A stretch of 64,000 nt of DNA from Escherichia coli (GTDB taxonomy: Bacteria > Pseudomonadota > Gammaproteobacteria > Enterobacterales > Enterobacteriaceae): the NCBI RefSeq assembly GCF_003334405.1, contig NZ_QOWM01000003.1; one strand, given 5' to 3'. This document shows positions 17,172-50,147 of the stretch, piece by piece (within the stretch, counting starts at the first letter, position 1; each line of letters opens with the position of its first letter). A model generated the notes under the pieces. That model ran no database searches, was not told the origin of the DNA, and was given only the letters and a program-made list of their open reading frames with translations. The position numbers were made by a program, and so were the translations under genes.

Positions 17172-17365
17172 AGTGCGCAGATCCGGATAGATGTGTAGAT
17201 GATGCATGAGCAGAAATGGGCAATGAAACACGGGCGACTATTTTGCGGCAAAAGAGGCCAGCCGCAAAAGCAGTGCGTGCTTTAAGAGATAAAAAAACGT
17301 GACACTGTAACCTATTATTGCCGGATTGCGCGTAATCGTCACCATCCGGCAATATTACGGTGATC

Positions 17366-19506: not shown

Positions 19507-21933
19507 TTAAACCTTTTCGATCTGGACAAGATTGCTGTGCGACGGGTTTCCCTTTGCCAGCGGTGAAGGGCGGTGAGAGGTCAGAATATTGATACTGCCG
19601 CCGTGATCGACCCGGTCACCAAACATATCCGCTTTAAGCCACGCACCTTGCCCGATGGCGGTAACGCCAGGCAGAATACGCGGAGTCACTTTTGCGGCAA
19701 TCAGCATTTCTCCATTATTGTTAAATACCCGCACGGTATCGCCATGACGGATACCGCGTGCCTGAGCATCAATGGGGTTGATCCACACCTCTTGTGGGCA
19801 GGCCTGCTGTAACACATCAATATTGCCGTAGCTGGAGTGGGTACGCGCTTTGTAATGGAAGCCCGTTAACTGCAGTGGATAGGTTTTCCGCAGGGGATCG
19901 TCCCAGCCATCAAAACCTGGGGTATACGCAGGAAGGGGATGAATAATTTCATCTTTTTTCAATTCCCAGGTATCTGCAATCTTCGCCAGTCGTTCAGAAT
20001 AAATTTCGATTTTCCCCGAAGGTGTTTTCAACGGGTTTGCCTGTGGATCTTCACGGAATGCGCGGAAAGCGACGTAGTGTTCTTCCGGGCATTTTTTCTT
20101 AAAGATCCCGGTCGTTTTCATCTCCTCGTAGTCGGGCATCTCAGGGTTACGTTCCTTCGTTTTCGCATGGAGATATTTGATCCATTCATGCTGACTGCGA
20201 CCTTCAGTAAAGGTTTGATAAACGTCTGGTCCTAAGCGTTTGGCGACTTCACTCAGCATCCAGTAGATGGGTTTGCGTTCAAATTTTGCTGAGGTTGCGG
20301 GTTGGGCGAGGATCACATAGCCCATATTCCCTGCAGATTCATGAGAGATAAGGTCTTCTTGCTCTGTTGGCATCAGGTCGGGCAACAGGATATCGCAATA
20401 CTTAGCCGAGGCCGTCATGAAGTGGTCAATGCCAACAATCATCTCGCACTTGCTGTCATCCTGAAGCACCTCATGGGTGTGATTGATGTCGCCATGTTGA
20501 TTGATCAATGTGTTACTGGCGTAGCACCATAAAAACTTGATGGGGACATCCAGTTTTTCTTTTCCACGAACACCATCACGGGTCGCGGTCATTTCCGTAC
20601 CATGGTCGATGGCATCTGTCCATGTAAAGACGGAAATCTGCGTTTTAACAGGATTCTCGAGCATCGGGAACCATTCTACCCCCAGATCCCAGCTACCTTC
20701 GCGTACGCCTGAGTTGCCGCCGTTTATGCCGACGTTGCCGGTGAGAACGGAAAGCATGGCAATAGCGCGGGATGTTTGCTCGCCGTTGGAATGTCGTTGT
20801 GGCCCCCAACCCTGACAAATATAAGCAGGTTTTGCTGAACCGATCTCTCGTGCCAACTGGATAATTTTTTCTGCCGGGATGCTGGTGATTTTTGCTGCCC
20901 ATTCCGGCGTTTTAGCTATGCCGTCAGGCCCTTCGCCCAGAATATAGGCTTTATAATGCGCGTTACGTGGTGCGTTGGCGGGCAGCGTTTTTTCATCGTA
21001 ACCAACACAATATTTGTCGAGAAATGGCTGATCGACCATGTTTTCAGTAATCAGTACCCAGGCAATCGCACAGGCCAGTGCGCCATCGGTGCCAGGGCGA
21101 ATGGGCAGCCATTCATCTTCACGCCCGGCAGCAGTGTCGTTATAACGTGGATCGATGACGATCATGCGTGCGTTTGAACGTTCGCGGGCTTGCTCGACGT
21201 AGTAAGTGACACCACCGCCGCTCATCCGCGTTTCTGCCGGGTTATTTCCGAACATAACGACCAGTTTCGTATTGGCGATATCATCCGGGCTGTTGCCATC
21301 ATTGGCACCGAACATATAACTCATTGCGGCACTGATCTGTGCGGTACTGTAGCTGCCATAGCGACTGAGAAAACCACCGCAAGAGTTCATCAGACGGTAC
21401 GGGACGTTTGAGTTGGTGATGTTTCCGCCATCTACGCCTGTTCCGTACAGGACATGTACAGCCTCATTGCCGTAATCTTTCAGGATCCGCCGAAGATTAT
21501 CACTGATGGTATCCAGGGCTTCGTCCCAACTTATCCGTTCAAATTTACCTTCACCGCGCTTGCCGACGCGCTTCATGGGATATTTCAACCTATCAGGATG
21601 ATTCATCCGTCGGCGGATAGAGCGCCCGCGTAAACACGCTCGAACCTGATGATTACCGTAGACGTCGTCACCTGTCGTATCAGACTCCACCCAGTACACG
21701 GTGTCATCTTTCACATGCAAACGTAACAGACAGCGGCTCCCGCAGTTAACGGTGCAGGAACTCCAGACCGCTTTCTCTTCTACCGGAGCCTCTGCCGCCC
21801 GGACCATTTGGGAAAATGGCAGAGTGAAAGCACTGCTTGCCAGCGCAAGACTGCCAAGTGCGGAGGTTTTCATCAGACTTCTACGGCTGATTTCAGCCTT
21901 CATGAGCGCCTCTGTGGTATGGATTTTCATCAT
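19507..21933 (-). CDS. ynfF: DMSO-reductase-family molybdoenzyme catalytic subunit, Tat-exported
   Basis: About 807 aa; twin-arginine signal SRRSLMKTSALGSLALA; tandem paralog of ynfE. Confidence 0.9.
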   Translation of the reverse strand: MMKIHTTEALMKAEISRRSLMKTSALGSLALASSAFTLPFSQMVRAAEAPVEEKAVWSSCTVNCGSRCLLRLHVKDDTVYWVESDTTGDDVYGNHQVRACLRGRSIRRRMNHPDRLKYPMKRVGKRGEGKFERISWDEALDTISDNLRRILKDYGNEAVHVLYGTGVDGGNITNSNVPYRLMNSCGGFLSRYGSYSTAQISAAMSYMFGANDGNSPDDIANTKLVVMFGNNPAETRMSGGGVTYYVEQARERSNARMIVIDPRYNDTAAGREDEWLPIRPGTDGALACAIAWVLITENMVDQPFLDKYCVGYDEKTLPANAPRNAHYKAYILGEGPDGIAKTPEWAAKITSIPAEKIIQLAREIGSAKPAYICQGWGPQRHSNGEQTSRAIAMLSVLTGNVGINGGNSGVREGSWDLGVEWFPMLENPVKTQISVFTWTDAIDHGTEMTATRDGVRGKEKLDVPIKFLWCYASNTLINQHGDINHTHEVLQDDSKCEMIVGIDHFMTASAKYCDILLPDLMPTEQEDLISHESAGNMGYVILAQPATSAKFERKPIYWMLSEVAKRLGPDVYQTFTEGRSQHEWIKYLHAKTKERNPEMPDYEEMKTTGIFKKKCPEEHYVAFRAFREDPQANPLKTPSGKIEIYSERLAKIADTWELKKDEIIHPLPAYTPGFDGWDDPLRKTYPLQLTGFHYKARTHSSYGNIDVLQQACPQEVWINPIDAQARGIRHGDTVRVFNNNGEMLIAAKVTPRILPGVTAIGQGAWLKADMFGDRVDHGGSINILTSHRPSPLAKGNPSHSNLVQIEKV

Positions 21934-21990
21934 TACTCACTTATTGCTTTTCAAACAAAATGTCATGCCAGAATTTATGGTTGTCGTGGG

Positions 21991-24417
21991 TTATATTTTT
22001 TCGATCTCGACCAGATTAGTGTGCTGCGGGTTTCCCTTCGCCAGTGGTGAAGGGCGCAGAGTGGTTAGCGTATTCACACAGCCGCCATGGTCGATTTTAT
22101 CGCCAGACATATTGGCCTCGTGCCAGGCTCCCTGGCCCATAGCGCTAACTCCAGGGAGAATACGTGGTGTTACTTTGGCTGGTAGCCGAACTTCGCCACG
22201 ATGGTTAAACACCCGCACCATATCGCCGTTGGCAATCCCACGTTTCTGCGCATCTATAGGGTTGATCCACACCTCCTGACGGCAGGCAGCCTTCAGGAGA
22301 TCAATATTGCCGTAGGTCGAGTGAGTACGGGATTTGTAATGGAAACCAAACAGTTGCAGTGGGAAGGTTCTACGTTCAGGGGAGTTCCAGCCTTCAAAGG
22401 TTGAGGCATAAACTGGCAATGGGCTTATCACTTCATCTTTTTCCAGTTCCCAGGTACGGGCAATTTCCGCCAGCCTGCTGGAATAAATTTCAATCTTACC
22501 GGAAGGCGTTTTAAGTGGATTTGCCTCGGGGTCGTCACGAAATGCTTTGTAGGCGACAAAATGGCCATTGGGATCTTTACGCTTATAGATACCCATTTTT
22601 TTCAGTTCGTCGTAAGACGGTAACGCCGGATCTTTGGCAAGCATTTTGGCGTACAGATGTTGTAACCATTGTTCCTGCGTGCGACCTTCTGTGAACTTTT
22701 GATAGACGTCAGGTCCAAGACGTTTCGCGACTTCACTCAGGATCCAGTAAATCGGTTTGCGTTCGAATTTTTCGCTGGTGACAGGCTGGAGGAAAATGAG
22801 ATATCCCATGTTACCGGCGTAGTCGTTAGGAATAATATCTTCCTGCTCAACGGTCATCAGGTCTGGCAGCAGAATGTCGGCATATTTTGCCGATGAGGTC
22901 ATAAAGTTTTCGATGACCACAATCATTTCGCATTTCGATTCGTCCTGCAGAATTTCATGCGTTTTGTTGATGTCAGAATGCTGATTAACGAGGGTATTTC
23001 CCGCGTAGTTCCAGATGAACTTAATGGGCACATCCAGTTTATCTTTGCCGCGGACGCCGTCGCGGATTGCCGTCATTTGCGGACCATGATCGATAGCATC
23101 TGTCCAGCTGAAGCAGGAGATTGACGTTTTGACCGGATTATCCAGCACCGGCAGGCGTTCTATGGTAATGGTATAGGTCGATTCACGCGCGCCACTATTT
23201 CCGCCGCTGATGCCGACATTGCCCGTCAAAATAGGTAACATAGCAATAGCGCGTGCAGTCAGTTCGCCGTTTGCCTGGCGTTGTGGCCCCCAGCCCTGGC
23301 AGATATAAGCGGGTTTTGCTGTGCCAATTTCACGCGCCAGTTTGATGATACGGTCCTCCGGGATACCGGTAATTTGCGAAGCCCACTGCGGCGTTTTCGC
23401 TGTTTTATCGTCACCTTCACCAAGAATATAGGCTTTATAGTGACCATTTTTGGGTGCATCTGCGGGTAAGGTTTTTTCGTCATAGCCGACGCAGTATTTA
23501 TCGAGAAAAGGTTGATCAACGAGATTTTCGTTAATCAATACCCAGGCAATACCCGCAACCAGCGCGGCATCGGTGCCCGGGCGAATAGGGAGCCATTCGT
23601 CTTCACGACCGGCAGCCGTATCGGTATATCGCGGATCGATAACAATCATTTTGGCGTTCGATTTCTCGCGCGCTTTTTCAAGAAGATAAGTGATGCCACC
23701 ACCGCTCATGCGGGTTTCTGCCGGGTTGTTACCAAACATCACGACCAGCTTGCTGTTTTCAATATCCGTGGTGCTGTTGCCATCATTACTGCCGTAGGTG
23801 TAGGGCATGGCACAGGAAATTTGCGCAGTGCTGTAGGAGCCATACTGGTTGAGTGAACCGCCGTAGCAGTTCATCAGGCGTTTGACCGCCGAGGCTGATG
23901 GCGAAGAGCGGGTCATATTGCCGCCAACGATCCCCGAAGAGTACTGAATATATACAGCCTCATTGCCATATTGTTCGACGGTTTTCTTCAGGCTACTGGC
24001 GATAGTATCCAGGGCTTCATCCCAGCTAATCCGTTCGAATTTGCCTTCGCCGCGTTTGCCCACGCGTTTCATTGGGTAATTCAAGCGATCGGGATGATTA
24101 ATACGCCGGCGGATGGAGCGACCGCGCAAACAGGCGCGTACCTGATGGTTGCCGTACTCATCGCTGCCGGTATTGTCAGTTTCCACCCAGGTCACTTCAT
24201 TATCTTTAACATGTAGACGAAGTGCACAGCGGCTACCACAGTTGACGGAACAGGCACCCCAGACCACTTTTTCGCGGGCCTGTTGTACCGCTGCTGCTGC
24301 ATTGCGCAGGGTAAACGGCAAAGAAAAACCGCCTGCAGCCAGCGCCAGAGAACCTATCGCGGTAGATTTAACGAGTGTTCTGCGGCTGATGCCCACCATT
24401 CGTTCATTTTTGGACAT
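21991..24417 (-). CDS. ynfE: DMSO-reductase-family molybdoenzyme catalytic subunit (selenate reductase-type), Tat-exported
   Basis: 808 aa; twin-arginine signal SRRTLVKSTAIGSLALAAG; tandem paralog of ynfF. Confidence 0.9.
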   Translation of the reverse strand: MSKNERMVGISRRTLVKSTAIGSLALAAGGFSLPFTLRNAAAAVQQAREKVVWGACSVNCGSRCALRLHVKDNEVTWVETDNTGSDEYGNHQVRACLRGRSIRRRINHPDRLNYPMKRVGKRGEGKFERISWDEALDTIASSLKKTVEQYGNEAVYIQYSSGIVGGNMTRSSPSASAVKRLMNCYGGSLNQYGSYSTAQISCAMPYTYGSNDGNSTTDIENSKLVVMFGNNPAETRMSGGGITYLLEKAREKSNAKMIVIDPRYTDTAAGREDEWLPIRPGTDAALVAGIAWVLINENLVDQPFLDKYCVGYDEKTLPADAPKNGHYKAYILGEGDDKTAKTPQWASQITGIPEDRIIKLAREIGTAKPAYICQGWGPQRQANGELTARAIAMLPILTGNVGISGGNSGARESTYTITIERLPVLDNPVKTSISCFSWTDAIDHGPQMTAIRDGVRGKDKLDVPIKFIWNYAGNTLVNQHSDINKTHEILQDESKCEMIVVIENFMTSSAKYADILLPDLMTVEQEDIIPNDYAGNMGYLIFLQPVTSEKFERKPIYWILSEVAKRLGPDVYQKFTEGRTQEQWLQHLYAKMLAKDPALPSYDELKKMGIYKRKDPNGHFVAYKAFRDDPEANPLKTPSGKIEIYSSRLAEIARTWELEKDEVISPLPVYASTFEGWNSPERRTFPLQLFGFHYKSRTHSTYGNIDLLKAACRQEVWINPIDAQKRGIANGDMVRVFNHRGEVRLPAKVTPRILPGVSAMGQGAWHEANMSGDKIDHGGCVNTLTTLRPSPLAKGNPQHTNLVEIEKI

Positions 24418-27344: not shown

Positions 27345-28559
27345 ATGAAGATCGTAAAGGCTGAAGTTTTTGTTACCTGTCCGGGGCGTAATTTCGTCAC
27401 ATTAAAAATCACCACTGAGGACGGTATTACGGGCCTTGGGGATGCCACCCTCAATGGACGTGAGCTTTCCGTGGCCTCTTATTTGCAGGATCACCTTTGT
27501 CCGCAGCTTATTGGTCGCGATGCGCACCGTATCGAAGATATCTGGCAGTTTTTCTATAAAGGTGCTTACTGGCGTCGCGGTCCGGTTACGATGTCGGCCA
27601 TTTCAGCGGTTGATATGGCGCTGTGGGATATTAAAGCCAAAGCTGCCAACATGCCGCTTTACCAGTTACTCGGCGGCGCGTCTCGTGAAGGGGTGATGGT
27701 TTATTGCCATACCACCGGTCACAGTATTGATGAAGCTCTGGATGATTATGCCCGTCATCAAGAGCTTGGATTCAAAGCCATCCGCGTGCAGTGCGGAATC
27801 CCTGGTATGAAAACCACCTACGGCATGTCGAAAGGTAAAGGTCTGGCTTATGAACCCGCAACCAAAGGACAGTGGCCGGAAGAGCAGCTGTGGTCGACGG
27901 AGAAATACCTCGATTTCATGCCGAAATTGTTTGACGCGGTACGTAACAAGTTTGGTTTTAATGAACATTTGCTGCATGACATGCACCATCGCTTAACGCC
28001 TATTGAAGCGGCGCGCTTTGGTAAAAGCATTGAAGATTATCGCATGTTCTGGATGGAAGACCCGACGCCTGCGGAAAACCAGGAATGCTTCCGTCTCATT
28101 CGCCAACATACCGTCACACCCATCGCAGTGGGTGAAGTCTTCAACAGCATCTGGGACTGCAAACAACTGATTGAAGAGCAACTCATCGATTATATCCGCA
28201 CCACGCTGACCCATGCAGGCGGAATTACCGGTATGCGCCGGATTGCCGATTTTGCTTCGCTGTATCAGGTACGTACTGGCTCACACGGTCCTTCCGATTT
28301 GTCACCAGTCTGCATGGCTGCGGCGCTGCACTTTGATCTGTGGGTCCCCAATTTCGGTGTCCAGGAATACATGGGTTATTCCGAACAAATGCTCGAAGTC
28401 TTCCCGCACAACTGGACTTTCGATAACGGCTATATGCATCCGGGAGACAAACCGGGTCTTGGTATCGAATTCGATGAAAAGCTGGCGGCGAAATATCCCT
28501 ATGAACCTGCTTATCTACCAGTCGCACGTCTGGAAGATGGCACGCTGTGGAACTGGTAA
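27345..28559 (+). CDS. rspA: Enolase-superfamily mannonate/altronate dehydratase-like starvation-sensing protein
   Basis: Start at ATG 27345 ([17 protein letters not shown]...), 404 aa. Confidence 0.9.
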
Positions 28560-28570
28560 GGAGTAAGATA

Positions 28571-29590
28571 ATGAAAAGCATATTAATTGAAAAACCGAAT
28601 CAACTGGCGATTGTCGAACGTGAAATACCCACCCCGTCAGCGGGTGAAGTACGAGTAAAAGTGAAACTTGCCGGAATTTGTGGTTCAGATAGCCATATTT
28701 ATCGTGGGCATAATCCTTTTGCGAAATATCCGCGCGTCATTGGTCATGAATTCTTTGGCGTCATTGATGCAGTGGGTGAAGGCGTGGAAAGCGCCAGAGT
28801 CGGTGAACGTGTTGCTGTCGATCCGGTGGTCAGCTGTGGGCATTGCTATCCGTGCTCTATAGGTAAACCGAACGTTTGTACGACACTGGCTGTATTAGGT
28901 GTGCACGCTGACGGTGGTTTCAGTGAATATGCCGTGGTTCCGGCAAAAAATGCGTGGAAAATTCCTGAAGCAGTGGCCGATCAATATGCGGTAATGATCG
29001 AACCTTTTACCATTGCGGCTAACGTAACCGGACATGGTCAACCGACTGAAAATGATACCGTTCTGGTTTATGGTGCCGGTCCAATCGGCCTGACGATCGT
29101 TCAGGTATTAAAAGGCGTCTATAACGTTAAAAATGTGATTGTTGCCGATCGCATTGATGAACGACTGGAAAAAGCGAAAGAGAGCGGGGCTGACTGGGCG
29201 ATTAATAACAGCCAGACACCGCTTGGCGAGATTTTCACTGAAAAAGGCATCAAGCCGACATTAATTATCGATGCGGCTTGTCATCCTTCTATCCTGAAAG
29301 AGGCCGTAACGCTGGCTTCTCCAGCGGCACGTATTGTATTGATGGGGTTCTCCAGTGAACCGTCTGAAGTGATTCAGCAAGGAATTACCGGAAAAGAACT
29401 CTCTATTTTCTCTTCACGCTTAAATGCAAATAAATTCCCGATCGTTATCGACTGGTTAAGTAAAGGGTTAATTAAACCAGAAAAATTAATTACCCATACG
29501 TTTGATTTCCAGCATGTTGCTGATGCCATTAGTTTATTTGAACAGGATCAAAAACATTGCTGCAAAGTCTTACTCACTTTTTCTGAATAA
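28571..29590 (+). CDS. rspB: Zn-dependent alcohol dehydrogenase family starvation-sensing protein
   Basis: Start at ATG 28571 (MKSILIEKPN...), 339 aa; GICGSD and GHEFFG zinc-ADH motifs; start overlaps rspA 3' end region. Confidence 0.9.
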   Translation: MKSILIEKPNQLAIVEREIPTPSAGEVRVKVKLAGICGSDSHIYRGHNPFAKYPRVIGHEFFGVIDAVGEGVESARVGERVAVDPVVSCGHCYPCSIGKPNVCTTLAVLGVHADGGFSEYAVVPAKNAWKIPEAVADQYAVMIEPFTIAANVTGHGQPTENDTVLVYGAGPIGLTIVQVLKGVYNVKNVIVADRIDERLEKAKESGADWAINNSQTPLGEIFTEKGIKPTLIIDAACHPSILKEAVTLASPAARIVLMGFSSEPSEVIQQGITGKELSIFSSRLNANKFPIVIDWLSKGLIKPEKLITHTFDFQHVADAISLFEQDQKHCCKVLLTFSE

Positions 29591-29647
29591 TACCAATAAC
29601 GGCGAGTAAGTAGTACGCATCTTACCTCTTTTTTAGAGATAACCATT

Positions 29648-29758
29648 ATGACAATAGAAAAACACGAAAGAAGCACTAAGGATTTGGTGAAAGCAGCAGT
29701 ATCGGGATGGCTGGGCACTGCGCTTGAATTTATGGATTTCAAGAGTCATGCGTGTTAA
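29648..29758 (+). pseudogene. ydfJ: 5' fragment (about 30 codons) of MFS transporter gene ydfJ, truncated at the prophage junction
   Basis: ATG 29648 gives MTIEKHERSTKDLVKAAVSGWLGTALEFMDF, then diverges into KSHAC-stop at 29756-29758; the integrase 3' end lies 20 bp beyond. Confidence 0.6.
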
Positions 29759-29777
29759 CTATTTGATAAATATTAAA

Positions 29778-31073
29778 TTAATTTTTCATTGCTTCGTTAT
29801 GGGGCATGGTTGGGGCAAACTCGCTTAACTGTGTATTTAACAAAGCTACCTGTGCATTATTGTTTTCAGACATCCATTTTCCGTATACCTGAAATACCAT
29901 TTGCGCATCTGCATGGCCCATCTGGTTTGCTATAAATGCCGGGTTAGCACCAGCTGTCAGCGACCAGCAGGCATAAGTATGTCTCGACTGATATGATTTT
30001 CGATGGCGGAGTCCGGCACGTTTTATCGCTGCGTCCCACATCTGCCTTATTGAGTCAACGGTAAAATGGTCACCATAATTTTTTACTCTCGCTGACACTT
30101 CAGGTTGAAAAACAAAGGTGCATTTTTGTTTTTCTGTTCTGCCATACTCTCTGAGGTGAACATCAATGATATGCTCTTTGCTCAGTCTCGTTAATGTCAT
30201 CTGACTCCGGAGAGCGTCGATTGCTGGCTTAATAAGATGAATGACCCGATTGGTTCCCGCCTGTGTTTTTGGTACCGTGAAACGGTCTTTTGCTAAATTT
30301 CTCCTGATCATCATTGTTCCATTTTTCAGATCTATGTCCTCCCATCCAAGTGCACACAGCTCACCAGGGCGAACTCCAGTATAAACAGAAACACACCATA
30401 AATTTTTTGCTTGCTGATTTCTGCACGCATCGATAAGACGGATAAATTCTTCCCGCGAAAGAGGATCCGGAATGGTTCTTGATTCCTTTAATGGCGAGAT
30501 CCCCTTAAACGGATTATCTGCCAGGTAACCGTTATCAACACCAAACTGGAACACGGCGTTAAGATTTGTCATGTAATTATTTACAGTTACAGCCGATCTC
30601 CCTGGTTGTGTAACAATATAGTTACTTTTGGGGATCTGGTATCCAGTCAGTAACTCTTTACGAACCTCCAGTAATTTTTCTTTATTAATCGATGAGGCAA
30701 GATTTTTTTCACCGATTATGCTCAGGATATTTTTGATGACGGCACGGTATGTGTTGAGTGATGTTTTGGCGACTTCAGTTTCTTTCAGTGCCAGAAATTT
30801 TTCAGCCAGTTCTTTTATGGTTAAATCTTGTCGGGCCTCACCAAATTTTTCCAGATTGCGTGAGGAGGGAAACTGTTTTGCATAGTCGAAAACACCAGTT
30901 TTTATTGCGTAACAAACAGAGGAGCGTAGTTCACCTGCAACGCGCCTGTTTTTTGCTGTGTCAGGAACCCCCAGATTTTCCCTGACTCTTACGTCTTTAT
31001 AAACAAACCAGATACGTAATTTCCCTCCATGGTTTTCCACGCCTGTCGGATATTTCATTTCAACTTCTCTCAT
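29778..31073 (-). CDS. Lambdoid tyrosine integrase (apparently full length)
   Basis: 431-aa ORF with catalytic-domain motifs YTGVRPGELCALGWEDIDL, HTYACW and GHADAQMVFQVYGKW; real start may be the ATG at 31058 (MKYPTGV...) which has a GAGAAG upstream. Confidence 0.85.
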   Translation of the reverse strand: MREVEMKYPTGVENHGGKLRIWFVYKDVRVRENLGVPDTAKNRRVAGELRSSVCYAIKTGVFDYAKQFPSSRNLEKFGEARQDLTIKELAEKFLALKETEVAKTSLNTYRAVIKNILSIIGEKNLASSINKEKLLEVRKELLTGYQIPKSNYIVTQPGRSAVTVNNYMTNLNAVFQFGVDNGYLADNPFKGISPLKESRTIPDPLSREEFIRLIDACRNQQAKNLWCVSVYTGVRPGELCALGWEDIDLKNGTMMIRRNLAKDRFTVPKTQAGTNRVIHLIKPAIDALRSQMTLTRLSKEHIIDVHLREYGRTEKQKCTFVFQPEVSARVKNYGDHFTVDSIRQMWDAAIKRAGLRHRKSYQSRHTYACWSLTAGANPAFIANQMGHADAQMVFQVYGKWMSENNNAQVALLNTQLSEFAPTMPHNEAMKN

Positions 31074-31092
31074 TAGTTAGTGTGGCTTTTAG

Positions 31093-31344
31093 TCAAGTAA
31101 GATGACGTCTTGGTCTCGCTGATGCCTGGCGCTCAATCCAGCGATCAATTTCTTCCAGGTTGTAAAAGCATGGACTGTTATCCCATGGCATACCGTCATG
31201 AGCGACATGCTTATATTCCCTTCCTTCCATAAACGATTTTTCCCGGGCCTTTTTTAACGTACCTTTTTTTATTCCTTTCAGCGCAATTAACTGCTCTTCG
31301 GATACCCATTTGCCGGGAGAGACAATCATGATTACTTCGCTCAT
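31093..31344 (-). CDS. Excisionase-like protein
   Basis: 83-aa ORF immediately upstream of int on the same strand; GREYKHVAHDG resembles the lambda Xis GREYLFHESA region. Confidence 0.55.
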   Translation of the reverse strand: MSEVIMIVSPGKWVSEEQLIALKGIKKGTLKKAREKSFMEGREYKHVAHDGMPWDNSPCFYNLEEIDRWIERQASARPRRHLT

Positions 31345-31416
31345 CGATTTCTTTATCTCTTACATCAGACGAGCGCCGGTTGCAGAATACCAGTCACAAC
31401 CGGCGACAGTTGAACA

Positions 31417-33315
31417 TTAAGAATCAGCCTGACTCGGGATCAGTTTTTGCCAGATAACTGAAACGTATTTTGCCTGGTAACGGGCGTCATCAAGTGCATT
31501 ATGGCGCTCACCTTCGAATGGAATAGCCGTTCTGGCATCGAAGTCTATGGCTTTCCCCAGCTCAACGATTGTGCGTACATCGCGATCGTTGTAGTAACGC
31601 CACGGGCAGGGGATCCCCTGCCGTTCGTATGAACGGCGCAAAATCGTGTTGTCGAAGTTGGCTCCATTTCCCCAAACCTGAACAAAAAATTCACCGGAGT
31701 TTTCGTCGATAAATTCTCGCAATTGTAACAGTGCATCATCTAACGGGATTTCATCGGTCATAATGGCAGATTGCGCTTCGCGTGATTGCTTAAGCCACCA
31801 TTTAATGGTGTCCCGATCAATGACTCCGCCAGCAGTTTCCAGATCGATAGTCTTACTAAATTCCGGTCCCATATCTCCGGTTTGCGGATCGAAAAATATT
31901 GCACCTATTGAGATGATCGGGGCATCAGGATTTTTTCCCATGGTTTCAAGGTCGATCATTAGATGGTCACACGTCCTGCTGGTGGATGTGATTTCGTGAT
32001 GACCGTTCACCTTAATTGGGTGATCTGCCGTCTCGCCAGTTTCATTATCGCTATTGTGATGCTGATTGCCGCCAGTGTTCTCCTTGTGTGGATGTTCAGC
32101 GCCTTCCATTTCCTCCGGATCATCTTCCTGAACTTCAACCTGATACTCTTCATCGAATGTTTCTTGGTATGTTGCGTCGCCCATCACCGCGCCACAATCA
32201 GGGCAGTTGCCGCCGCCGGTCTGACCGCAGGCGGTGCAGACTTTTTCCACTTCCTGTTGCGCTACTGGTTCAGGCTGTTTCGTTTCTGGCTCGTTTTGTA
32301 ACGCATTTGGACTGTTTTGTTCCGCTTTTTGGTAGTTCCGTTCCGATTCATGCTGGTTCTGGTTCACAGAATCGCGGGTCTGGAGCCCCTTAACCCATTT
32401 CGGATCATTCGGGTCACTAATCCCTTCAACAAATTCACCACGTGATGCAGCAAGCAACTTATCGGCGTCAGGCTGGCTGATATTGGCTGCCTGCATAATT
32501 TTGTTTACTTCGTCAGCGGTAACTTTTATCGGCTCTGGTTGTTCTGAATCTTCAGCGGTATCTACATTTTGCGGTAAGCCCGTGTATGTGCCATTTTTTC
32601 GGGCAAAATATTCTTCTTTTGTGATTTCAGTGGCGCCAGCAGCCAGTGCCTTATCCAGACCAGAGAGTTTGTTTGCGCGACCGTATTTTTCTCCGTCCTT
32701 ATCTGCGAAGAGGAAATAGAACGGCCCCTCACGCTCTACAGATGGTTCAGCTTCCGGCGCGGTTTCATTTTTTGGGATATCAGATACCTCAGTTTCCACT
32801 GCATCAGTTTGTGTTTCTGATGACTGGAGAACATCAACAGTGCCCAGGTCTGTTTCTTCATTCTCAAACACGCCCTTTGTCGTCAGGTATTCGCAGATAT
32901 ATTTGTTCAGTGCTACGGGATCTTTGTGAATGTCGATCGGACGCTCACGGACAAGGCCAAAAATAGTTTGGCGGTCGTAGCGAAGGGCATCAGGCTGTTT
33001 GCGCATTGATGCCGAGATACGCTTCCAGTCTTCGCGGTCGTTGTCGATAACTTCTTTTTTTGCCCAGCGATGGATGCTGCCGTCAATGTTTCCGGCATCC
33101 ACATCACTAGGCCAGAGAGCGTAGGCCAGTTCGTCATCCAGTGTTTTCCATGTCTGCTTGTATTCGCGATGAATGGCAGCAATGACCGGGCTGATTTTTC
33201 CTGTTGAATTTTCAGTGTACTGTTGATTGGCTCTGGCGCGGGCGAGATCAACAACAGACGTGTATTTTCCGGTTTCCTTGCGTTCACCTTCGCGACGTTT
33301 TTTCCAGATGCGCAT
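31417..33315 (-). CDS. Phage exonuclease with C-terminal DnaQ-like (DEDDh) 3'-5' exonuclease domain
   Basis: C-terminal MIDLETMG ... WGNGANFD ... HNALDDARY motifs; central CTACGQTGGGNCPDCGA zinc ribbon; long Glu/Asp/Gln-rich linker; 5' end uncertain (first ATG at 33315; the track ORF extends to a TTG at 33450). Confidence 0.6.
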   Translation of the reverse strand: MRIWKKRREGERKETGKYTSVVDLARARANQQYTENSTGKISPVIAAIHREYKQTWKTLDDELAYALWPSDVDAGNIDGSIHRWAKKEVIDNDREDWKRISASMRKQPDALRYDRQTIFGLVRERPIDIHKDPVALNKYICEYLTTKGVFENEETDLGTVDVLQSSETQTDAVETEVSDIPKNETAPEAEPSVEREGPFYFLFADKDGEKYGRANKLSGLDKALAAGATEITKEEYFARKNGTYTGLPQNVDTAEDSEQPEPIKVTADEVNKIMQAANISQPDADKLLAASRGEFVEGISDPNDPKWVKGLQTRDSVNQNQHESERNYQKAEQNSPNALQNEPETKQPEPVAQQEVEKVCTACGQTGGGNCPDCGAVMGDATYQETFDEEYQVEVQEDDPEEMEGAEHPHKENTGGNQHHNSDNETGETADHPIKVNGHHEITSTSRTCDHLMIDLETMGKNPDAPIISIGAIFFDPQTGDMGPEFSKTIDLETAGGVIDRDTIKWWLKQSREAQSAIMTDEIPLDDALLQLREFIDENSGEFFVQVWGNGANFDNTILRRSYERQGIPCPWRYYNDRDVRTIVELGKAIDFDARTAIPFEGERHNALDDARYQAKYVSVIWQKLIPSQADS

Positions 33316-33373
33316 CTCTGCCTGAATTTCGGGCCATTTAGCACCAGGAATACATTTATGCTTAACCCACCCA

Positions 33374-33640
33374 ATGGCGTGCAACTTAAGCTCCGGATAC
33401 GGGTTATTCCCCTCTGAACAGGCGCGTAAGGACTGGCAAAACGCCCGCAAAAAACTCTCGAGGGCAAAGGTGAAGAAACCTGCTGTGGTTGATCCGGACC
33501 TTATCTGGTCATCACCTGACGGAGAAATACGTCGCTACGACAGTCGCCTAAACATAATCTGTCGCGAGTGCCGGAAGAGCGAAGTTATGCAGCGCATACT
33601 GGCTTTCTATCAGGGTAATTTTCAGGACGTGGCGCAGTGA
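33374..33640 (+). CDS. Hypothetical small basic protein
   Basis: 88-aa ORF; stop overlaps the GTG start of the downstream methyltransferase fragment (GTGA); no recognisable SD. Confidence 0.3.
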   Translation: MACNLSSGYGLFPSEQARKDWQNARKKLSRAKVKKPAVVDPDLIWSSPDGEIRRYDSRLNIICRECRKSEVMQRILAFYQGNFQDVAQ

Positions 33641-33993
33641 GTGCACCGGCAACCATTCTTGATATGTGCTGTGGCAGCCGCATGTTCTGGTTCGATAAGT
33701 CTGACGAACGGGCGATATTCAGCGATATCAGAAAAGAAGGATACACATTACGCAATGGGAGACGCTTGATTATCAGCCCTGACATTATCGCAGATTTTCG
33801 TGCATTATCATTTGCAGACGCATCTTTTTCGATGGTTGTATTAGACCCTCCGCATCTTGAGAGTGTTGGTGATAACGCCTGGATGGGAAAGAAATATGGA
33901 CGGCTGAATAAAGATGCCTGGCGTGATGATTCGCGACAGAGATTTAAAGAAGCCTTTCGGGTGTTGAGGCCGCACGGCGTTCTGATTTTTTAA
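33637..33993 (+). pseudogene. DNA methyltransferase, probably 3'-truncated
   Basis: 118-aa ORF with ILDMCCGS (SAM-binding motif I-like) and VVLDPPHLES (DPPH, catalytic motif IV of N6A/N4C methyltransferases); ends shortly after motif IV. Confidence 0.45.
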
Positions 33994-34255
33994 TGGAATG
34001 AAACGCAAATACCGGTAAGCCAGATTCTGGCACTGACAGACAGAAAACCTGTTATCTGTCAACGAACAGGGAAAAAACGATAAAACCCACTGGATTATTT
34101 TTATGAAAGAGGCATCCAGTGAGTAGATTCGTAAGGCTACAGATACGTATATCTGAATAATTAAATTCAGTTCTGTAAATAAAATTTAATCCTTAACCGG
34201 ATGGATTTCTGCACCCTCAGAACATCAGGAGGCCGCCCGAAAGGGCGGTAGTGAA

Positions 34256-34890
34256 ATGCGAAAGTTCAAAATTATTATTGAAACGGGAATAGCTGGTGGA
34301 GATTTTGAGGATGTATTCGAAGTGGACGATGACGCAACACCTGAGGAAATTCATGACGGAGCATAAGAAATTTTCTTTAACTACTGCAATTACTCATACC
34401 ACGAAATAAAAGACGATGAGGAAGAACAAAGTGGCTGATTTTTGTTCAGCTAAATATAACATCAGTTTTGAAGAGCGGGATGAACTATTAATGGACTATG
34501 GTGAGTTACGCGGTGGAAGTGCTGCTGATGTCGAATCCTAGCGTGATGACTATGAAGCGGGAAAAACTCCGGTCGAAGCATATTGTGATGAGTGGGGCGA
34601 TGAATGAGCGAGATTAATTATCAGGAAGGGCATGAAACGGCGGGGCAAGCAAAACCAGTGGCATGGCGATATCGCTACGTGAAAAAAGGCGTTACGGACT
34701 TTCAGGGGAAGTAGTGGTCTGGTGACTGGAAATATGTACCGAAAAAAGAGGATTGTAACGACAGGCCGAACTATCAAATTCAGGCCTTATTCACTGCCTC
34801 ACCAGTCCCAGTTACATCAGAAGAACTGGTTAAAGCTGTGCACTTTTATGAACAACTAAAACGCGAAAATCCACCAACATCCGGCAACTA
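34256..34890 (+). pseudogene. Decayed run of small early-region ORFs interrupted by in-frame stop codons
   Basis: Three consecutive reading frames each continue in-frame across a single stop (TAA 34364-34366, TAG 34539-34541, TAG 34710-34712); the second and third are linked by an ATGA overlap. Confidence 0.3.
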
Positions 34891-35145
34891 GATTAATGGA
34901 TTAACTATGTCGGTTAAACGACCAGCCAACTGAAAAAGCGGAAACCTGATTACAGGTTGCCAGATAAGGCAATGAGCTACCTGGCGCGGAACGGACTGAT
35001 AAGTATGGGGAATGTTTTACGATGAACCTTTAGACTAAAGAGTTTGTAACGCTATGTAAGTGATTTTTTCTGGTTTAGATATTTATATGTCCGGCCAAAT
35101 TGAGGTGTGTTTAAATGTAATTGCACATTGATTGTAGGAGGAATA

Positions 35146-47391: not shown

Positions 47392-47779
47392 GAGGTTGCC
47401 CCGTATTCAGTGTCGCTGATTTGTATTGTCTGAAGTTGTTTTTACGTTAAGTTGATGCAGATCAATTAATACGATACCTGCGTCATAATTGATTATTTGA
47501 CGTGGTTTGATGGCCTCCACGCACGTTGTGATATGTAGATGATAATCATTATCACTTTACGGGTCCTTTCCGGTGATCCGACAGGTTACGGGGCGGCGAC
47601 CTCGCGGGTTTTCGCTATTTATGAAAATTTTCCGGTTTAAGGTGTTTCCGTTCTTCTTCGTCGTAACTTAATGTTTTTATTTAAAATACCCCCTGAAAAG
47701 AAAGGAAACGACAGGTGCTGAAAGCGGGCTTTTTGGCCTTTGTCGTTTCCTTTCTCTGTTTTTGTCCGTGGAATGAACA

Positions 47780-48325
47780 ATGGAAGTCAACAAAAAGCAG
47801 CTGGCTGACATTTTCGGTGCGAGTATCCGTACCATTCAGAACTGGCAGGAACAGGGAATGCCCGTTCTGCGAGGCGGTGGCAAGGGTAATGAGGTGCTTT
47901 ATGATTCTGCCGCCGTCATAAAATGGTATGCCGAAAGGGATGCTGAAATTGAGAACGAAAAGCTGCGCCGGGAAGTTGAAGAACTGCGGCAGGCCAGCGA
48001 GACAGATCTCCAGCCAGGGACTATTGAGTACGAACGCCATCGACTTACGCGTGCGCAGGCCGACGCACAGGAGCTGAAAAATGCCAGAGACTCCGCTGAA
48101 GTGGTGGAAACCGCATTCTGTACTTTCGTGCTGTCGCGGATCGCAGGTGAAATTGCCAGTATTCTCGACGGGATCCCCCTGTCGGTGCAGCGGCGTTTTC
48201 CGGAACTGGAAAACCGACATGTTGATTTCCTGAAACGGGATATCATCAAAGCCATGAACAAAGCAGCCGCGCTGGATGAACTGATAACGGGGCGCACTTT
48301 GACGGTGACCAGAGCGGCACGGTGA
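47780..48325 (+). CDS. nohA: Terminase small subunit Nu1 homolog, C-terminus replaced at a deletion junction
   Basis: First ~168 aa match lambda Nu1 (MEVNKKQLADIFGASIRTIQNWQEQGMPVLRGGGKGNEVLYDSAAVIKWYAERD...ALDELI), then an unrelated tail TGRTLTVTRAAR-stop. Confidence 0.75.
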   Translation: MEVNKKQLADIFGASIRTIQNWQEQGMPVLRGGGKGNEVLYDSAAVIKWYAERDAEIENEKLRREVEELRQASETDLQPGTIEYERHRLTRAQADAQELKNARDSAEVVETAFCTFVLSRIAGEIASILDGIPLSVQRRFPELENRHVDFLKRDIIKAMNKAAALDELITGRTLTVTRAAR

Positions 48326-48609
48326 ATGGTGTCACGCCGCCAGCAGTTCAGCACCTGACCGCAGAAGTCACCGCAGACAGCGGGGAATACCAGGTGCTGG
48401 CGCGCTGGGACACGCCGAAGGTGGTGAAGGGGGTGAGCTTTATGCTTCGCCTGACCGTGGCAGCGGACGACGGCAGTGAGCGGTTGGTCAGCACGGCCCG
48501 GACGACGGAAACCACATATCGCTTCACGCAGCTGGCGCTGGGAAATTACAGGCTGACAGTCCGGGCGGTAAATGCATGGGGACAGCCGGTGCACATACCC
48601 ATTCGATGA
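48322..48609 (+). pseudogene. Fragment of tail tip/host specificity protein J (fibronectin-III-like region)
   Basis: ...[25 protein letters not shown] matches the lambda J C-terminal region; only about 95 codons present. Confidence 0.5.
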
Positions 48610-48884
48610 CATTTGTTTCAGGTGGTTCCAGTGGTGCTCCGGGAAGTGGATCACCTGATTATTCTAAATACAGTGTTAACACTTCTTCTGCAGGCGCTCA
48701 TACGCACTCTGTATCGGGTACTGCTGCAAGCGCAGGTGCACACGCACATACTGTCGGTATTGGTGCTCATACGCACTCCGTTGCGATTGGTTCACATGGA
48801 CATACCATCACCGTTAACGCTGCTGGTAACGCGGAAAACACCGTCAAAAACATCGCATTTAACTATATTGTGAGGCTTGCATAA
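48576..48884 (+). pseudogene. C-terminal fragment of side tail fibre protein Stf
   Basis: Gly/Ser/Thr-rich sequence with repeated GAHTHS motifs ([36 protein letters not shown]) typical of lambdoid Stf C-termini; no N-terminal part. Confidence 0.6.
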
Positions 48885-49459
48885 TGGCATTCAGAATGAG
48901 TGAACAACCACGGACCATAAAAATTTATAATCTGCTGGCCGGAACTAATGAATTTATTGGTGAAGGTGATGCATATATTCCGCCTCATACAGGTCTGCCA
49001 GCAAACAGTACCGATATTGCACCGCCAGATATTCCGGCAGGCTTCGTGGCTGTTTTCAACAGTGATGAGGCATCGTGGCATCTCGTTGAAGATCATCGGG
49101 GTAAAACGGTTTATGACGTAGCGTCAGGGGACGCGTTATTTATTTCTGAACTCGGTCCGTTACCGGAAAATGTTACCTGGTTATCGCCGGAAGGGGAGTT
49201 TCAGAAGTGGAACGGCACAGCCTGGGTGAAGGATACGGAAGCAGAAAAACTGTTCCGGATCCGGGAGGCGGAAGAAACAAAAAACAGCCTGATGCAGATA
49301 GCCAGTGAGCATATAGCGCCGCTTCAGGATGCTGTGGATCTGGAGATCGCAACGGAGGAAGAAACCTTGTTGCTGGAAGCCTGGAAAAAGTATCGGGTGT
49401 TGCTGAACCGTGTTGATACATCAACTGCACCGGATATTGAATGGCCAGCACTGCCGTAG
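48884..49459 (+). CDS. tfa: Tail fibre assembly protein
   Basis: 191-aa ORF; start overlaps the stf fragment stop. Confidence 0.8.
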
Positions 49460-49556
49460 GGTAAAACATATAAATTCTATAATTAGATGTATCTCTCCAT
49501 TTACGGCAAGGAAGGGGGCTTGGAAGACGTAAAGCATCTCACACCGAGATTATTTT

Positions 49557-50147
49557 TTATATGTCAGGTGTCTGACGTTTTGCTTTGGCTCTTAAAATGG
49601 TTTGCCGCGAGGTTTTGAATTCCCGGGCAATGGCACTTATACTTACACCTGACTTAATTCGTTCGAATACCACCTGTTTCTGTTCTTCATTTAACACAGG
49701 TGGTCGACCAAAACGTTTCCCTGCGCCGCGGGCTCTTACTATCCCGGAATGAGTGCGTTCAAGTAAAAGGTCTCGTTCAAATTCAGCGACTGCTGAAATT
49801 ACGTGCATCATCATTTTTCCTGTTGGACTGGTCAGGTCAATGCCCCCCAATGCTAAGCAATGCACTCTGATACCTGTTTCGGTCAGTTGTTCCACTGTTT
49901 TCCTGATATCCATTGCATTACAACCAAGGCGATCCAGTTTTGTCACAATCAATTGATCACCACATTTCAGGCGAGCAAGCAACCGGTTAAAACCAGGACG
50001 CTCACTGGTTGCTGCTGAGCCGCTAATGTGTTCTTCGATTATTTGCTGAGGTTTGATTTTAAAACCTGCACTTTCGATTTCCCGGCGTTGATTTTCGGTG
50101 GTCTGATCCAGCGTTGATATCCGACAGTAAGCAAAAATTCGAGACAT
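49557..50147 (-). CDS. pin: Serine recombinase, Hin/Gin/Pin DNA-invertase family
   Basis: 196-aa [23 protein letters not shown]... with catalytic Ser in RISTLDQ and C-terminal HTH. Confidence 0.88.

Follow-up and report, generated by a model that had tools for sequence, protein, structure and literature searches.

Among described elements, the closest relative of the locus reported here is the Qin prophage of Escherichia coli K-12. Its ydfJ is truncated at the same site as in our sequence, the flanks are 96-99% identical, and both elements share the gene order cspI, ymcF, ynfN, gnsB, ydfO, ynfO, cos, nohA ... tfaQ, pinQ, ydfK. The difference lies in the scar. K-12 Qin has a single joint, leading from nu1 at lambda position 719 (NohA of 189 aa) to a 702-bp stf fragment with no J piece, and this stf fragment is longer than ours and comes from a different stf allele. 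A near-identical cos-nu1 module is also present in the nohD region of DLP12 (K-12, E. coli B and relatives), which belongs to another prophage, inserted elsewhere in the chromosome; in K-12 DLP12, nohD is intact and the break lies in gene A (query nt 828). A complete Qin occupies the same chromosomal site in strain 0H18 (nohA, A ... J, lom, a 1116-aa stf, tfa, pinQ, ydfJ') and was used as the undeleted reference. Our search for literature on nohA or Qin decay, or on a deletion hot spot in nu1, returned nothing specific.

We analysed a 64-kb stretch of E. coli DNA (the window). It carries a decayed Qin (lambda-like) prophage in which pieces of three genes are fused by two internal deletions. 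The truncated ydfJ insertion site and the flanking gene order both match Qin (K-12, RM10410 and 0H18; 96-99.7% identity, collinear). The scar as such is ordinary: it is already annotated, with both gene fragments (J and Stf) listed as pseudogenes in RefSeq, and it represents one more allele of a well-known decayed prophage. What is unexpected is its left joint, which falls on a two-base spot in nu1 where about 30 independent prophage deletions begin. The features of the locus are as follows.

47591-47779, plus strand: cos region of Qin, intact (lambda match), with cosN GGGCGGCGACCT at 47591-47602 followed by cosB
47780-48325, plus strand: nohA, chimeric ORF of 181 aa, Nu1 residues 1-168/169 plus 12 residues from out-of-frame J DNA (tblastn, alignment)
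48283-48286, no strand: joint 1 (nu1/J), shared tetranucleotide GATA; nu1 unambiguous to 48282, J unambiguous from 48287
48287-48582, plus strand: J fragment with codons ~600-701, an Ig_J domain, not in the nohA reading frame (alignment, Pfam)
48583-48586, no strand: joint 2 (J/stf), shared tetranucleotide CAGC (alignment)
48587-48884, plus strand: Qin-type Stf C-terminus, last ~98 codons (ORF 48576-48884)
48884-49459, plus strand: tfaQ, tail fibre assembly gene, intact, 191 aa (95% identity to lambda Tfa residues 1-191)
49557-50147, minus strand: pinQ, serine DNA invertase, intact ORF of 196 aa (ORF and annotation)

At the DNA level, 47591-48292 corresponds to lambda 1-703 with 98.2% identity, and lambda cos together with nu1 up to codon 168/169 accounts for 47591-48286; in tblastn, nohA matches lambda Nu1 residues 1-171 at 98%. 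Position 48287 carries an A, where lambda, K-12 Qin and the intact 0H18 Qin have a C, and because this base distinguishes the parents, nu1 must end at or before 48286 (codon 169). The preliminary description had read nohA as lambda Nu1 for about 168 residues followed by unrelated sequence, and this is indeed the case, the remainder being J DNA in the wrong frame (the last 12 residues, TGRTLTVTRAAR; the J frame is +1 relative to nohA). Homology to the Nu1 family (Phage_Nu1, PF07471, found in all close homologues) extends over the N-terminal wHTH and self-association regions, and the complete Nu1 C-terminus (residues ~170-181) is absent. The chimeric ORF retains the portions of Nu1 for DNA binding and self-assembly and lacks the very C-terminal end. 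RefSeq names the identical sequence nohA, DNA-packaging protein.

Beyond joint 1, positions 48283-48589 match lambda 17302-17608 (91.9%, E=7e-126), and a remnant ORF of 95 codons (48322-48609) begins at an internal GTG within the J fragment. The earlier reading of about 95 codons of an FN3-like region of J was correct as to origin (codons 600-701) and imprecise as to family, as Pfam assigns Ig_J (PF24421, E=3e-36) and fn3 only at E=0.003; “FN3-like” is loosely right in the sense of an Ig-like fold. PGAP labels the fragment “phage tail tip protein J-related protein”, incomplete. It is best regarded as J-derived and not as a J gene, as it comprises one Ig_J domain of a ~1132-aa protein, and codons 600-701 do not include the C-terminal receptor-binding domain of full-length J. 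Beyond joint 2, 48583-51241 matches 41924-44582 of the intact 0H18 Qin (L006) at 98.6%. The ORF at 48576-48884 (102 aa) takes its ATG from J-derived DNA, its stop overlaps the tfaQ start (TAATG), and its product matches the C-terminus of 0H18 Stf (1116 aa) and residues 235-314 of lambda orf-314. What remains is the last ~98 codons of 1116, in line with the roughly 100 codons noted before; the N-terminal tail-attachment domain and the long shaft are gone, and PGAP calls the fragment “tail fiber protein”, missing N-terminus.

Alignment to lambda nu1, J and stf, proposed in the preliminary description as a means of locating the breakpoints, places both joints to the nucleotide (GATA at 48283-48286, CAGC at 48583-48586), and the downstream ORFs prove to derive from J and Stf, contrary to what would have spoken against that description. 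The E-values exclude chance matches, as does the recurrence of the double joint, at 100% identity, in many independent complete genomes. Assembly errors at the joints are excluded in practice, as more than 50 independent complete genomes carry them.

No match to lambda A, W, B, C, D, E, FI, FII, Z, U, V, G, H, M, L, K, I or lom was found at E<=1e-3 by tblastn in the whole 64-kb window, which bears out the earlier statement that terminase large subunit, portal, head, tail and lom are absent; because every head and tail gene is missing, the element can neither form particles nor package DNA. The preliminary description had also suggested illegitimate or microhomology-mediated deletions, and our alignments support this: each joint is gene-internal and has a microhomology of 4 nt (GATA and CAGC), and the flanks of both are collinear with gene-internal parts of the 0H18 Qin and with lambda. 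Although mosaic joints do occur naturally in Nu1 homologues (for example, alternative C-terminal halves from residue 101), the view that Nu1-J-Stf is a working mosaic, assembled through module-boundary recombination of the kind known from the evolution of lambdoid phages, is refuted by frame and coordinates and retains next to no probability, as both joints are within domains and out of frame, the pieces comprise only 102 and 98 codons of 1132- and 1116-aa proteins, the particle genes are all missing, and PGAP treats both fragments as incomplete pseudogenes.

The left joint deserves closer attention. About 30 distinct scars, found in Qin, DLP12 and other lambdoid prophages, begin on the left at one and the same TA, lambda 696-697 (nu1 codon 169; 48285-48286 in the window), which is preceded by ...GAACTGA and followed by CCGGGG. 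In DLP12 of E. coli B/INSC1002, EC6563 and FDAARGOS_433 the deletion begins at this same TA, and the Qin elements of F829 and 21EVA have the same nu1 breakpoint as the window; 21EVA keeps C, D and part of E, with joints nu1/portal and E/stf. The right partners vary widely (portal, capsid, U, V, I, L, J, lom, stf, tfa and an integrase). At the protein level, 48 Nu1-fusion clusters among the best 120 hits diverge at residue 168/169 with ~30 distinct tails, as against ~9 distinct junctions elsewhere in nu1 codons 145-181 (binomial P = 1e-30 for the excess at 168/169, best 120 hits). A protein search with Nu1 residues 1-97, which returned mostly short, frameshifted and partial ORFs, served as a rough control for breakpoint spread. 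Sixteen scars at the nu1 TA were read directly in DNA, 8 of them chosen from in-frame fusions, and the flank pattern holds in 16 out-of-frame cases. All junctions fall within lambda 694-697 (4 nt), bounded by T|G on one side and A|C on the other. Deletions extend rightward over 53 bp to more than 20 kb, with microhomologies of 0-4 nt inside imperfect matches of 6-9 nt. In a spread sample, a 120-bp probe centred on the TA gave partial matches on the left side only (5 of 5). The hot-spot survey detects only junctions retaining the left part of nu1.

The sites to which the TA becomes joined are not arbitrary either. They are enriched for C.G.TA.C.G: among 26 partner sites, T696 is matched in 23, A697 in 20, G701 in 17, C692 in 15, G694 in 15 and C699 in 14 (each P < 0.005), while positions 693, 695, 698 and 700 are at background. 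Unlike nu1 itself, partners favour G693 and C700. Compared with other sequences centred on TA, single partner sites show no significant palindromy (P = 0.17), so that the palindrome is a property of the population of sites only. Most partner sites are not the best consensus matches within lambda. Where the cores mismatch, the scar has the partner's dinucleotide in 5 cases and that of nu1 in 2, and several junctions combine A695 from nu1 with 696-697 from the partner.

From these comparisons, the left joint of the window is not random but sits at a strongly recurrent breakpoint, and nested deletions of a complete Qin, with the left joint at this recurrent TA, very probably explain the scar as a whole. 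The most likely cause of the clustering would be a sequence-specific DNA-end or strand-exchange event at the TA, followed by joining at similar short sequences. More specifically, we tentatively propose that the TA of nu1 codon 169 is a site-specific deletion hot spot of lambdoid prophages, at which a sequence-reading activity of the host or of a mobile element would create or capture a DNA end and join it to downstream sites resembling C-S-G-R-TA-Y-C-S-G. Candidates would be an enzyme exchanging strands with a 2-bp stagger (for instance a type IA topoisomerase), a recombinase or transposase that has escaped recognition, or a strong site of replication pausing and template switching.

One possible, if doubtful, form of this is that a nascent or resected 3' end at ...GAACTGATA(CC), before the CCGGGG run, switches template or anneals at short imperfect downstream homologies; in a variant, RecBCD resection arriving from the right would be attenuated by the Chi-like GCTGGATG (lambda 682-689). 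A pausing or resected end would account for the one-sided behaviour, with the left part kept and rightward deletions of such different lengths, and for the short microhomologies embedded in imperfect matches, and the octamer matches Chi at 6 of 8 positions, 5-8 nt left of the site and in active orientation. We know of no documented activity for a Chi variant with two mismatches. On the other hand, annealing predicts contiguous matches, whereas those observed alternate (692, 694, 696, 697, 699 and 701), the preference for G693 and C700 departs from the nu1 bases, and the local hairpin or quasi-palindrome (lambda 673-708) folds no better than shuffled sequences (z -0.68 to +0.70).

Rather doubtful is a strand-exchange enzyme acting at a 2-bp TA core, be it a type IA topoisomerase (Topo I or III, both of which require C at -4) or an activity on pseudo-sites like that of a serine recombinase or transposase. 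Restriction of the crossover to TA and resolution of the core dinucleotide to either parent would both be expected of such an enzyme, and the conserved C692 and G701 are placed exactly 4 nt 5' of the cuts flanking TA, one per strand. E. coli Topo I has been reported to cleave at TA and to require a C four nucleotides upstream, with the published motif TCNTTA cut inside TA (PMC9352719). However, a cut inside TA puts nu1 C692 at -5 on the top strand, so that only the bottom strand fits (C-G-G-T|A), and four of the five partner-type junctions lack a C at 692'. Moreover, partners show an excess of C692 and of G701, yet the two are not combined as the junction types would lead one to expect of a type IA enzyme, and no IS element remains in any scar.

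It is also conceivable, although unlikely, that the cluster reflects selection instead of a mutational hot spot, with only those deletions surviving or spreading that leave Nu1 residues 1-168, for example as a small terminase which binds DNA, fails to bind gpA and protects, as a decoy, against superinfection by lambdoid phages. All scars at the TA do retain the wHTH and self-association parts and drop the extreme C-terminus, truncated-nu1 alleles are widespread, and the C-terminal ~40 residues of Nu1 reportedly bind gpA (Frackman, Siegele and Feiss in 1985 and later domain work of the Catalano laboratory). Nevertheless, a 2-bp precision is not obtainable from selection on a protein, the sequence bias of the deleted partner sites would be left unexplained, tails occur both in frame and out of frame, and other forms persist too (intact NohD, K-12 NohA with 176 native residues, and truncations at nt 237 and 393).

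A type II topoisomerase cleavage site, with deletions arising by subunit exchange of DNA gyrase or topo IV as in Ikeda's model, is very unlikely, even though gyrase-mediated illegitimate recombination is established in E. coli and lambda and a four-nucleotide interval with fixed flanks would suit such an enzyme. In the accessible part of the W3110 Topo-Seq data, no gyrase cleavage site lies at nohD 580559-580563, the only nearby one being a weak site seen with oxolinic acid, at 580520. The type IIA determinants -4G/+8C, -2A/+6T and -1T/+5A misfit the symmetry centre between T696 and A697 (topo IV is likewise unmatched), and the gyrase consensus GGTAT/NNNN/ATACC aligns only in a register incompatible with the junctions. 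Furthermore, junctions with A695 from nu1 and 696-697 from the partner are impossible by simple segregation of a 4-bp heteroduplex.

Several known systems were also considered and rejected. The recombination site of Pin-type enzymes spans 26 bp and has AAACC NN GGTTT as its inner core; no such core, with one mismatch allowed, occurs in 46.6-64 kb (the nu1 site and stf/tfaQ/pinQ), and the junction is not centred in any half-site alignment, which discards a Pin/Hin/Gin pseudo-site. IS30 has a 2-bp target duplication, palindromic hot spots and a known hot spot in lambda, but the latter is at 33244-33498 and not in nu1, the centre of that hot spot bears only half a resemblance to the motif found here, and the scars contain no IS. 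As for a secondary site of lambda Int, GAACTGATA agrees with the core-type site CAACTTNNT in 4 positions out of 7, but this would imply an overlap of 4 bp and not 7. Type I-E CRISPR/Cas3 nicking, FokI-like GGATG(9/13), EcoBI/EcoKI, XerCD/dif and cosN-like TAC(C)GGGG failed on geometry or sequence when inspected by eye. The nearest mechanistic precedents are Int-promoted b deletions of lambda, Cin/Gin recombination at quasi-sites and topoisomerase-associated illegitimate recombination. Like the nu1 site, these have one fixed end with many weakly similar partners and a crossover of a few bp whose core dinucleotide converts to either parent. The nu1 site differs from them in that no att, pix/gix or topoisomerase consensus fits.

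If the hot spot is real, particle genes would have been removed repeatedly and directionally, with cos and a C-terminally truncated small terminase kept, which would be a stereotyped inactivation of prophages and not random decay. The usual model of prophage decay invokes random deletion and a selection filter, whereas the ~30 independent events described here, which come from at least three prophage families, begin at one dinucleotide and involve biased partners. Should a specific enzyme or stall be responsible, it would offer a testable in vivo handle on illegitimate recombination and would explain the many E. coli nohA/nohD genes with 169 native codons followed by assorted phage fragments. 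It would also predict how lambdoid prophages, including those of the Stx type, turn defective while cos and nu1 are kept as recombination substrates for incoming phages (PMC3945230).

The scar itself is of value only as part of a clean, datable nested series, from an intact Qin, through loss of the J end, lom and stf, to several independent nu1-to-J removals. Among 5426 complete genomes, the J/stf joint is present in 91, the exact double scar (that is, with the window's nu1/J joint) in 52, and the K-12 Qin joint (nu1 nt 529 to stf) in 372. The Qin alleles of NCTC10973/BUCT2930, 160-11H1 and F829 share the J/stf joint of the window to the base and differ on the left: NCTC10973/BUCT2930 break at nu1 nt 237 and keep 1260 bp of J, 160-11H1 breaks at nt 393 and keeps ~1.9 kb, and F829 leads from nt ~506 to J 16727, where the window leads from nt ~506 to J 17303. 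The comparison with the K-12 nohA-stfQ junction suggested in the preliminary description shows a different joint, so the scar is lineage-specific and not common to K-12; because neither allele is derivable from the other, the K-12 and window scars are independent products of different lineages. The direct parent is not 0H18, as its J, like that of lambda, has only ~92% identity to the J fragment of the window. The intact J of H135 is 99.6% identical to the longer F829 J fragment, in which that of the window is contained, and the alignment stops at the joint.

Starting from a complete, lambda-like Qin inserted in ydfJ, at least two successive intrachromosomal deletions produced the present state; the first is shown by comparison, and the later ones we infer. 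The first removed ~5.2 kb between J codon ~701 and the last ~98 stf codons via CAGC, and with it lom, the part of J that binds the receptor and the greater part of stf. Because the J/stf joint is common to at least four different left joints, it should be older than the nu1/J joint; this order depends on shared versus unshared joints, and the J/stf joint could also have spread by recombination between Qin alleles. One or two further deletions, ~16.6 kb in total, would then have joined nu1 codon 169 to J codon 600 via GATA, at the cost of the nu1 3' end, A and all head and tail genes. This may have proceeded in two stages, first to an intermediate like F829, with nu1 joined to J codon ~408, and then by deletion of 579 bp between two GATAACGG repeats. 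The F829-intermediate and the independent-origin routes to joint 1 use the same GATA. What remains is cos, the chimeric nohA ORF, the dead fragments of two genes, and tfaQ and pinQ, both intact, and the only role that the element can have is that of a donor of cos, nu1 and tfa to infecting lambdoid phages via homologous recombination.

The region is the Qin prophage's right arm. From left to right, the ORF listing and direct reading of the window give cspI, gnsB, ydfO, ynfO, cos, nohA, two remnant ORFs, tfaQ and pinQ. Chromosomes of K-12-type and wild E. coli are annotated with an identical gene order, adjoining the prophage-truncated ydfJ. The same two sources gave these features:

Between ynfO and nohA: cos, lambda-type
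47780-48325: nohA ORF, 181 aa
48322-48609: J-frame ORF, 95 codons
48576-48884: Stf-frame ORF, 102 codons
48884-49459: tfaQ
49557-50147, minus strand: pinQ

The preliminary description had read this locus as a compound deletion scar, in which a Nu1 match gives way to unrelated sequence and is followed by about 95 codons of J and about 100 codons of the Stf C-terminus, with the late genes absent. This reading proved correct. A tblastn search of the 64 kb with all lambda late proteins found only Nu1 1-171, J 600-710, the Stf C-terminus and Tfa; the frame is shifted between nohA and J, and the C-terminal 12 residues of NohA are unrelated to Nu1. In Pfam, the J piece belongs to Ig_J (E=3e-36) and its fn3 match is weak, so the wording "FN3-like" is only loosely right. 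The pieces thus come from Nu1, J and Stf, but none counts as those genes; the J-frame and Stf-frame ORFs are remnants, labeled by PGAP/RefSeq as "phage tail tip protein J-related protein" and "tail fiber protein", both incomplete. The Stf-frame ORF takes its ATG from J-derived DNA just upstream of the J/stf joint and ends in a stop codon overlapping the start of tfaQ (TAATG); the encoded 102-aa C-terminal peptide, rich in GAHTHS repeats, could therefore be translated. It needs to be mentioned that the closest genome, RM10410 (L002 5116-6323), carries an IS3-family element between tfaQ and pinQ which is absent from the window (cf. 49460-49480).

Alignment to lambda by BLAST matched window 47591-48292 to lambda 1-703 (98.2%), 48283-48589 to J at 17302-17608 (91.9%) and 48735-49449 to stf/tfa at 21824-22538 (92.9%), so both downstream ORFs are indeed J- and Stf-derived. 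Strain 0H18 has, at the same site, a complete Qin (nohA, A, W, B, C, D, E, FI, FII, Z, U, V, G, T, H, M, L, K, I, J, lom, stf of 1116 aa, tfa, pinQ), which the window matches at 98.6-99.0% on the left up to 48292 and on the right from 48583. On the nu1 side of the first joint, the sequence is GATACCGGGG in lambda and in the Qin copies of K-12 and 0H18, while the window reads GATAACGGGG and J reads GTGGATAACGGGG; the A at 48287 is therefore J-derived, and the joint lies in the GATA common to nu1 and J (48283-48286). The second joint is the CAGC common to J and stf (48583-48586; parents J ...GGGGGCAGC/AGG and stf ...GCTTCAGC/CGGTGCACAT). Outside the late region, the two Qin copies are substantially different: window 28370-39546 and 43767-45145 lack a megablast match above 300 bp in the fetched 0H18 locus (L006), and the left arm of 0H18 Qin contains insertions of IS30, IS3 and a group II intron, its lysis region one of IS1.

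The scar is not common to K-12 Qin. There, nu1 is kept to lambda 719, whereas the window joint lies at GATA 48283-48286, and nu1 is followed directly, with no J DNA, by a longer stf fragment from a different allele; neither scar could have given rise to the other. The window locus is a member of the Qin cryptic prophage carrying a new allele of the well-known nohA-stf scar, a real but ordinary finding. Probes of 120 bp spanning the junctions were matched by 91 of 5426 complete genomes for the J/stf joint, by 52 for the window's nu1/J joint and by 372, most of them laboratory derivatives, for the K-12 joint. Three further left joints accompany the J/stf joint: nu1 nt 237 with 1260 bp of J (NCTC10973, BUCT2930), nu1 nt 393 with ~1.9 kb of J (160-11H1), and nu1 ~506 to J 16727 (F829). 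This suggests that the J/stf deletion came first and that the nu1-to-J stretch was lost several times later. In F829 (L004), GATAACGG occurs twice, at 3084-3091 (its joint) and at 3661-3668, 579 bp apart, and a deletion between the copies would yield the exact window sequence. Three steps may thus have produced the window allele, with F829 as a surviving intermediate; it is equally possible that the window's joint arose independently from the same two GATA-containing sites. Strain 21EVA (L009) has another compound Qin scar, with joints at 2555/2556 and 4912/4913, where nu1 continues as the portal C-terminus, genes C and D are kept along with part of E, and E passes to the stf C-terminus through TAT/GGATAT-like microhomology.

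The main interest lies in a recurrent nu1 breakpoint rather than in the window's scar itself. Comparison of alleles at the DNA level revealed that unrelated scars break off nu1 at one position, ...GATGAACTGA(TA), beyond which the sequence is that of the partner; this TA, which we call the hot spot, lies in nu1 codon 169 (lambda 696-697, window 48285-48286).

Scars joined at the nu1 hot spot
21EVA, Qin: to portal 4241
LWY6, another prophage: to L 13502
FDAARGOS_433 and EC6563, DLP12-type: to tail-fibre DNA
INSC1002/E. coli B, DLP12: to J 16142
F829 and window, Qin: to J

The loci compared were window 48281-48290 (lambda 692-701) and fetched loci L004, L009-L013, L017-L024 and L027. Among the best 120 clusters of a protein search with intact NohA, 48 were Nu1 fusion ORFs diverging after residue 168/169, with ~30 distinct tails, against ~9 distinct junctions elsewhere in codons 145-181 (binomial P = 1e-30). 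The tails come from portal (two sites), C, E (three sites), FI, the Z/U boundary, V, K/I, J (several sites), lom (two sites), stf, tfa, gene A and a foreign integrase; nine of these junctions were verified on fetched DNA. In a rough control with the N-terminal 97 residues of Nu1, breaks and frameshifts were thin over codons 58-136, at no more than 4-5 alleles per codon. A 120-bp probe centred on the hot spot gave, in a spread sample, partial matches that all kept the left side (5/5). Deletions from the hot spot span 53 bp to >20 kb, and about 30 independent ones start there. We found no report of this cluster in the searchable literature, whose coverage ends short of subscription journals, and this is weak evidence of novelty.

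Every scar has nu1 up to lambda T693 and partner from 698, the switch being at or adjacent to the TA; when the partner dinucleotide is not TA, the scar carries the partner version (AA, AA, TG, TG, TC) or, in two cases, that of nu1. One allele (P0066/L024) joins the window's nu1 and J sites with one extra G, placing Nu1 in frame with J. We aligned 26 parental partner sites in the register set by the scars. They matched nu1 at T696 (23/26), A697 (20/26), G701 (17/26), C692 and G694 (15/26 each) and C699 (14/26), each at P < 0.005, and at background level at 693, 695, 698 and 700, with a preference for G at 693 and C at 700. The population consensus is a palindrome, C-S-G-R-TA-Y-C-S-G, still present in the 16 out-of-frame cases. 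Palindromy of single partner sites was not significant (P = 0.17), and the partner sites are mostly not those that score best against the consensus in lambda.

The breakpoint is thus very narrow, recurrent and one-sided, with a non-contiguous partner bias, and as its cause we infer a site-specific mutational hot spot, which is likely, though each agent that can be named is unproven. One lead is type IA topoisomerase cleavage at TA. E. coli Topo I cleaves at TA and requires a C four nucleotides upstream (PMC9352719); the enriched C692 and G701 lie 4 nt 5' of cuts flanking the TA, one per strand, and the nu1 bottom strand reads CGGT/A. However, the detailed junction types depart from the prediction, and the model is therefore only a lead. 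The one-sidedness would be accounted for either by a replication pause at the CCGGGG run with a switch of template, or by attenuation of RecBCD at the Chi-like GCTGGATG located 5-8 nt left of the hot spot, but both models are unproven and leave the alternating pattern unexplained. Selection may favour the persistence of alleles with a C-terminally truncated Nu1, but it is incapable of 2-bp precision and does not account for the bias in the deleted DNA. Several other candidates were rejected: gyrase (wrong motif register, and no site at the hot spot in the accessible part of the Topo-Seq tables), topo IV (motif unmatched), Pin invertase (no core sequence within 46.6-64 kb of the window), IS30 (known lambda hot spot located elsewhere, and none of the scars retains an IS) and a local hairpin (not better than shuffled controls).

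The Qin, Rac and DLP12 remnants of K-12 have been shown to act as recombination substrates for infecting lambdoid phages (PMC3945230), and the window's Qin remnants can still be used in this way. Some hot-spot alleles are unusual. In locus L023 (1501-3499), Nu1 1-169 continues in frame as the last 117 aa of a tyrosine integrase; next come an AlpA-like gene and one with a TIR domain (CAP12-PCTIR_TIR). A defence-island-like element here abuts the hot spot. In locus L027 (3001-5600), the hot spot leads into an immunity region with S24 repressor, YdaS/Cro-like and CP76/cII-like genes, oriented opposite to lambda's; hence, the hot spot may also serve inversions or inter-prophage rearrangements.

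Other nu1 boundaries were also seen. Two lambda-type Nu1 fragments labeled "Bacillus thuringiensis" (P0140) and "Cloning vector pMUT13" (P0198) probably owe these labels to cos-vector sequence or contamination, not biology. Natural Nu1 homologues P0144-P0151 share residues 1-101 with lambda Nu1 and then have two unrelated C-terminal halves (AREEGLVLETELF... and ERDRGDVIDTEFC...), a switch with the look of a genuine mosaic boundary that separates the DNA-binding domain from the remainder of Nu1. At nu1 codon 81 (~window 48020-48022), four different fusion partners directly follow I81 (...GGGACTATT) in P0169, P0171, P0180, P0182 and P0186, and this smaller cluster may be a second, weaker breakpoint.
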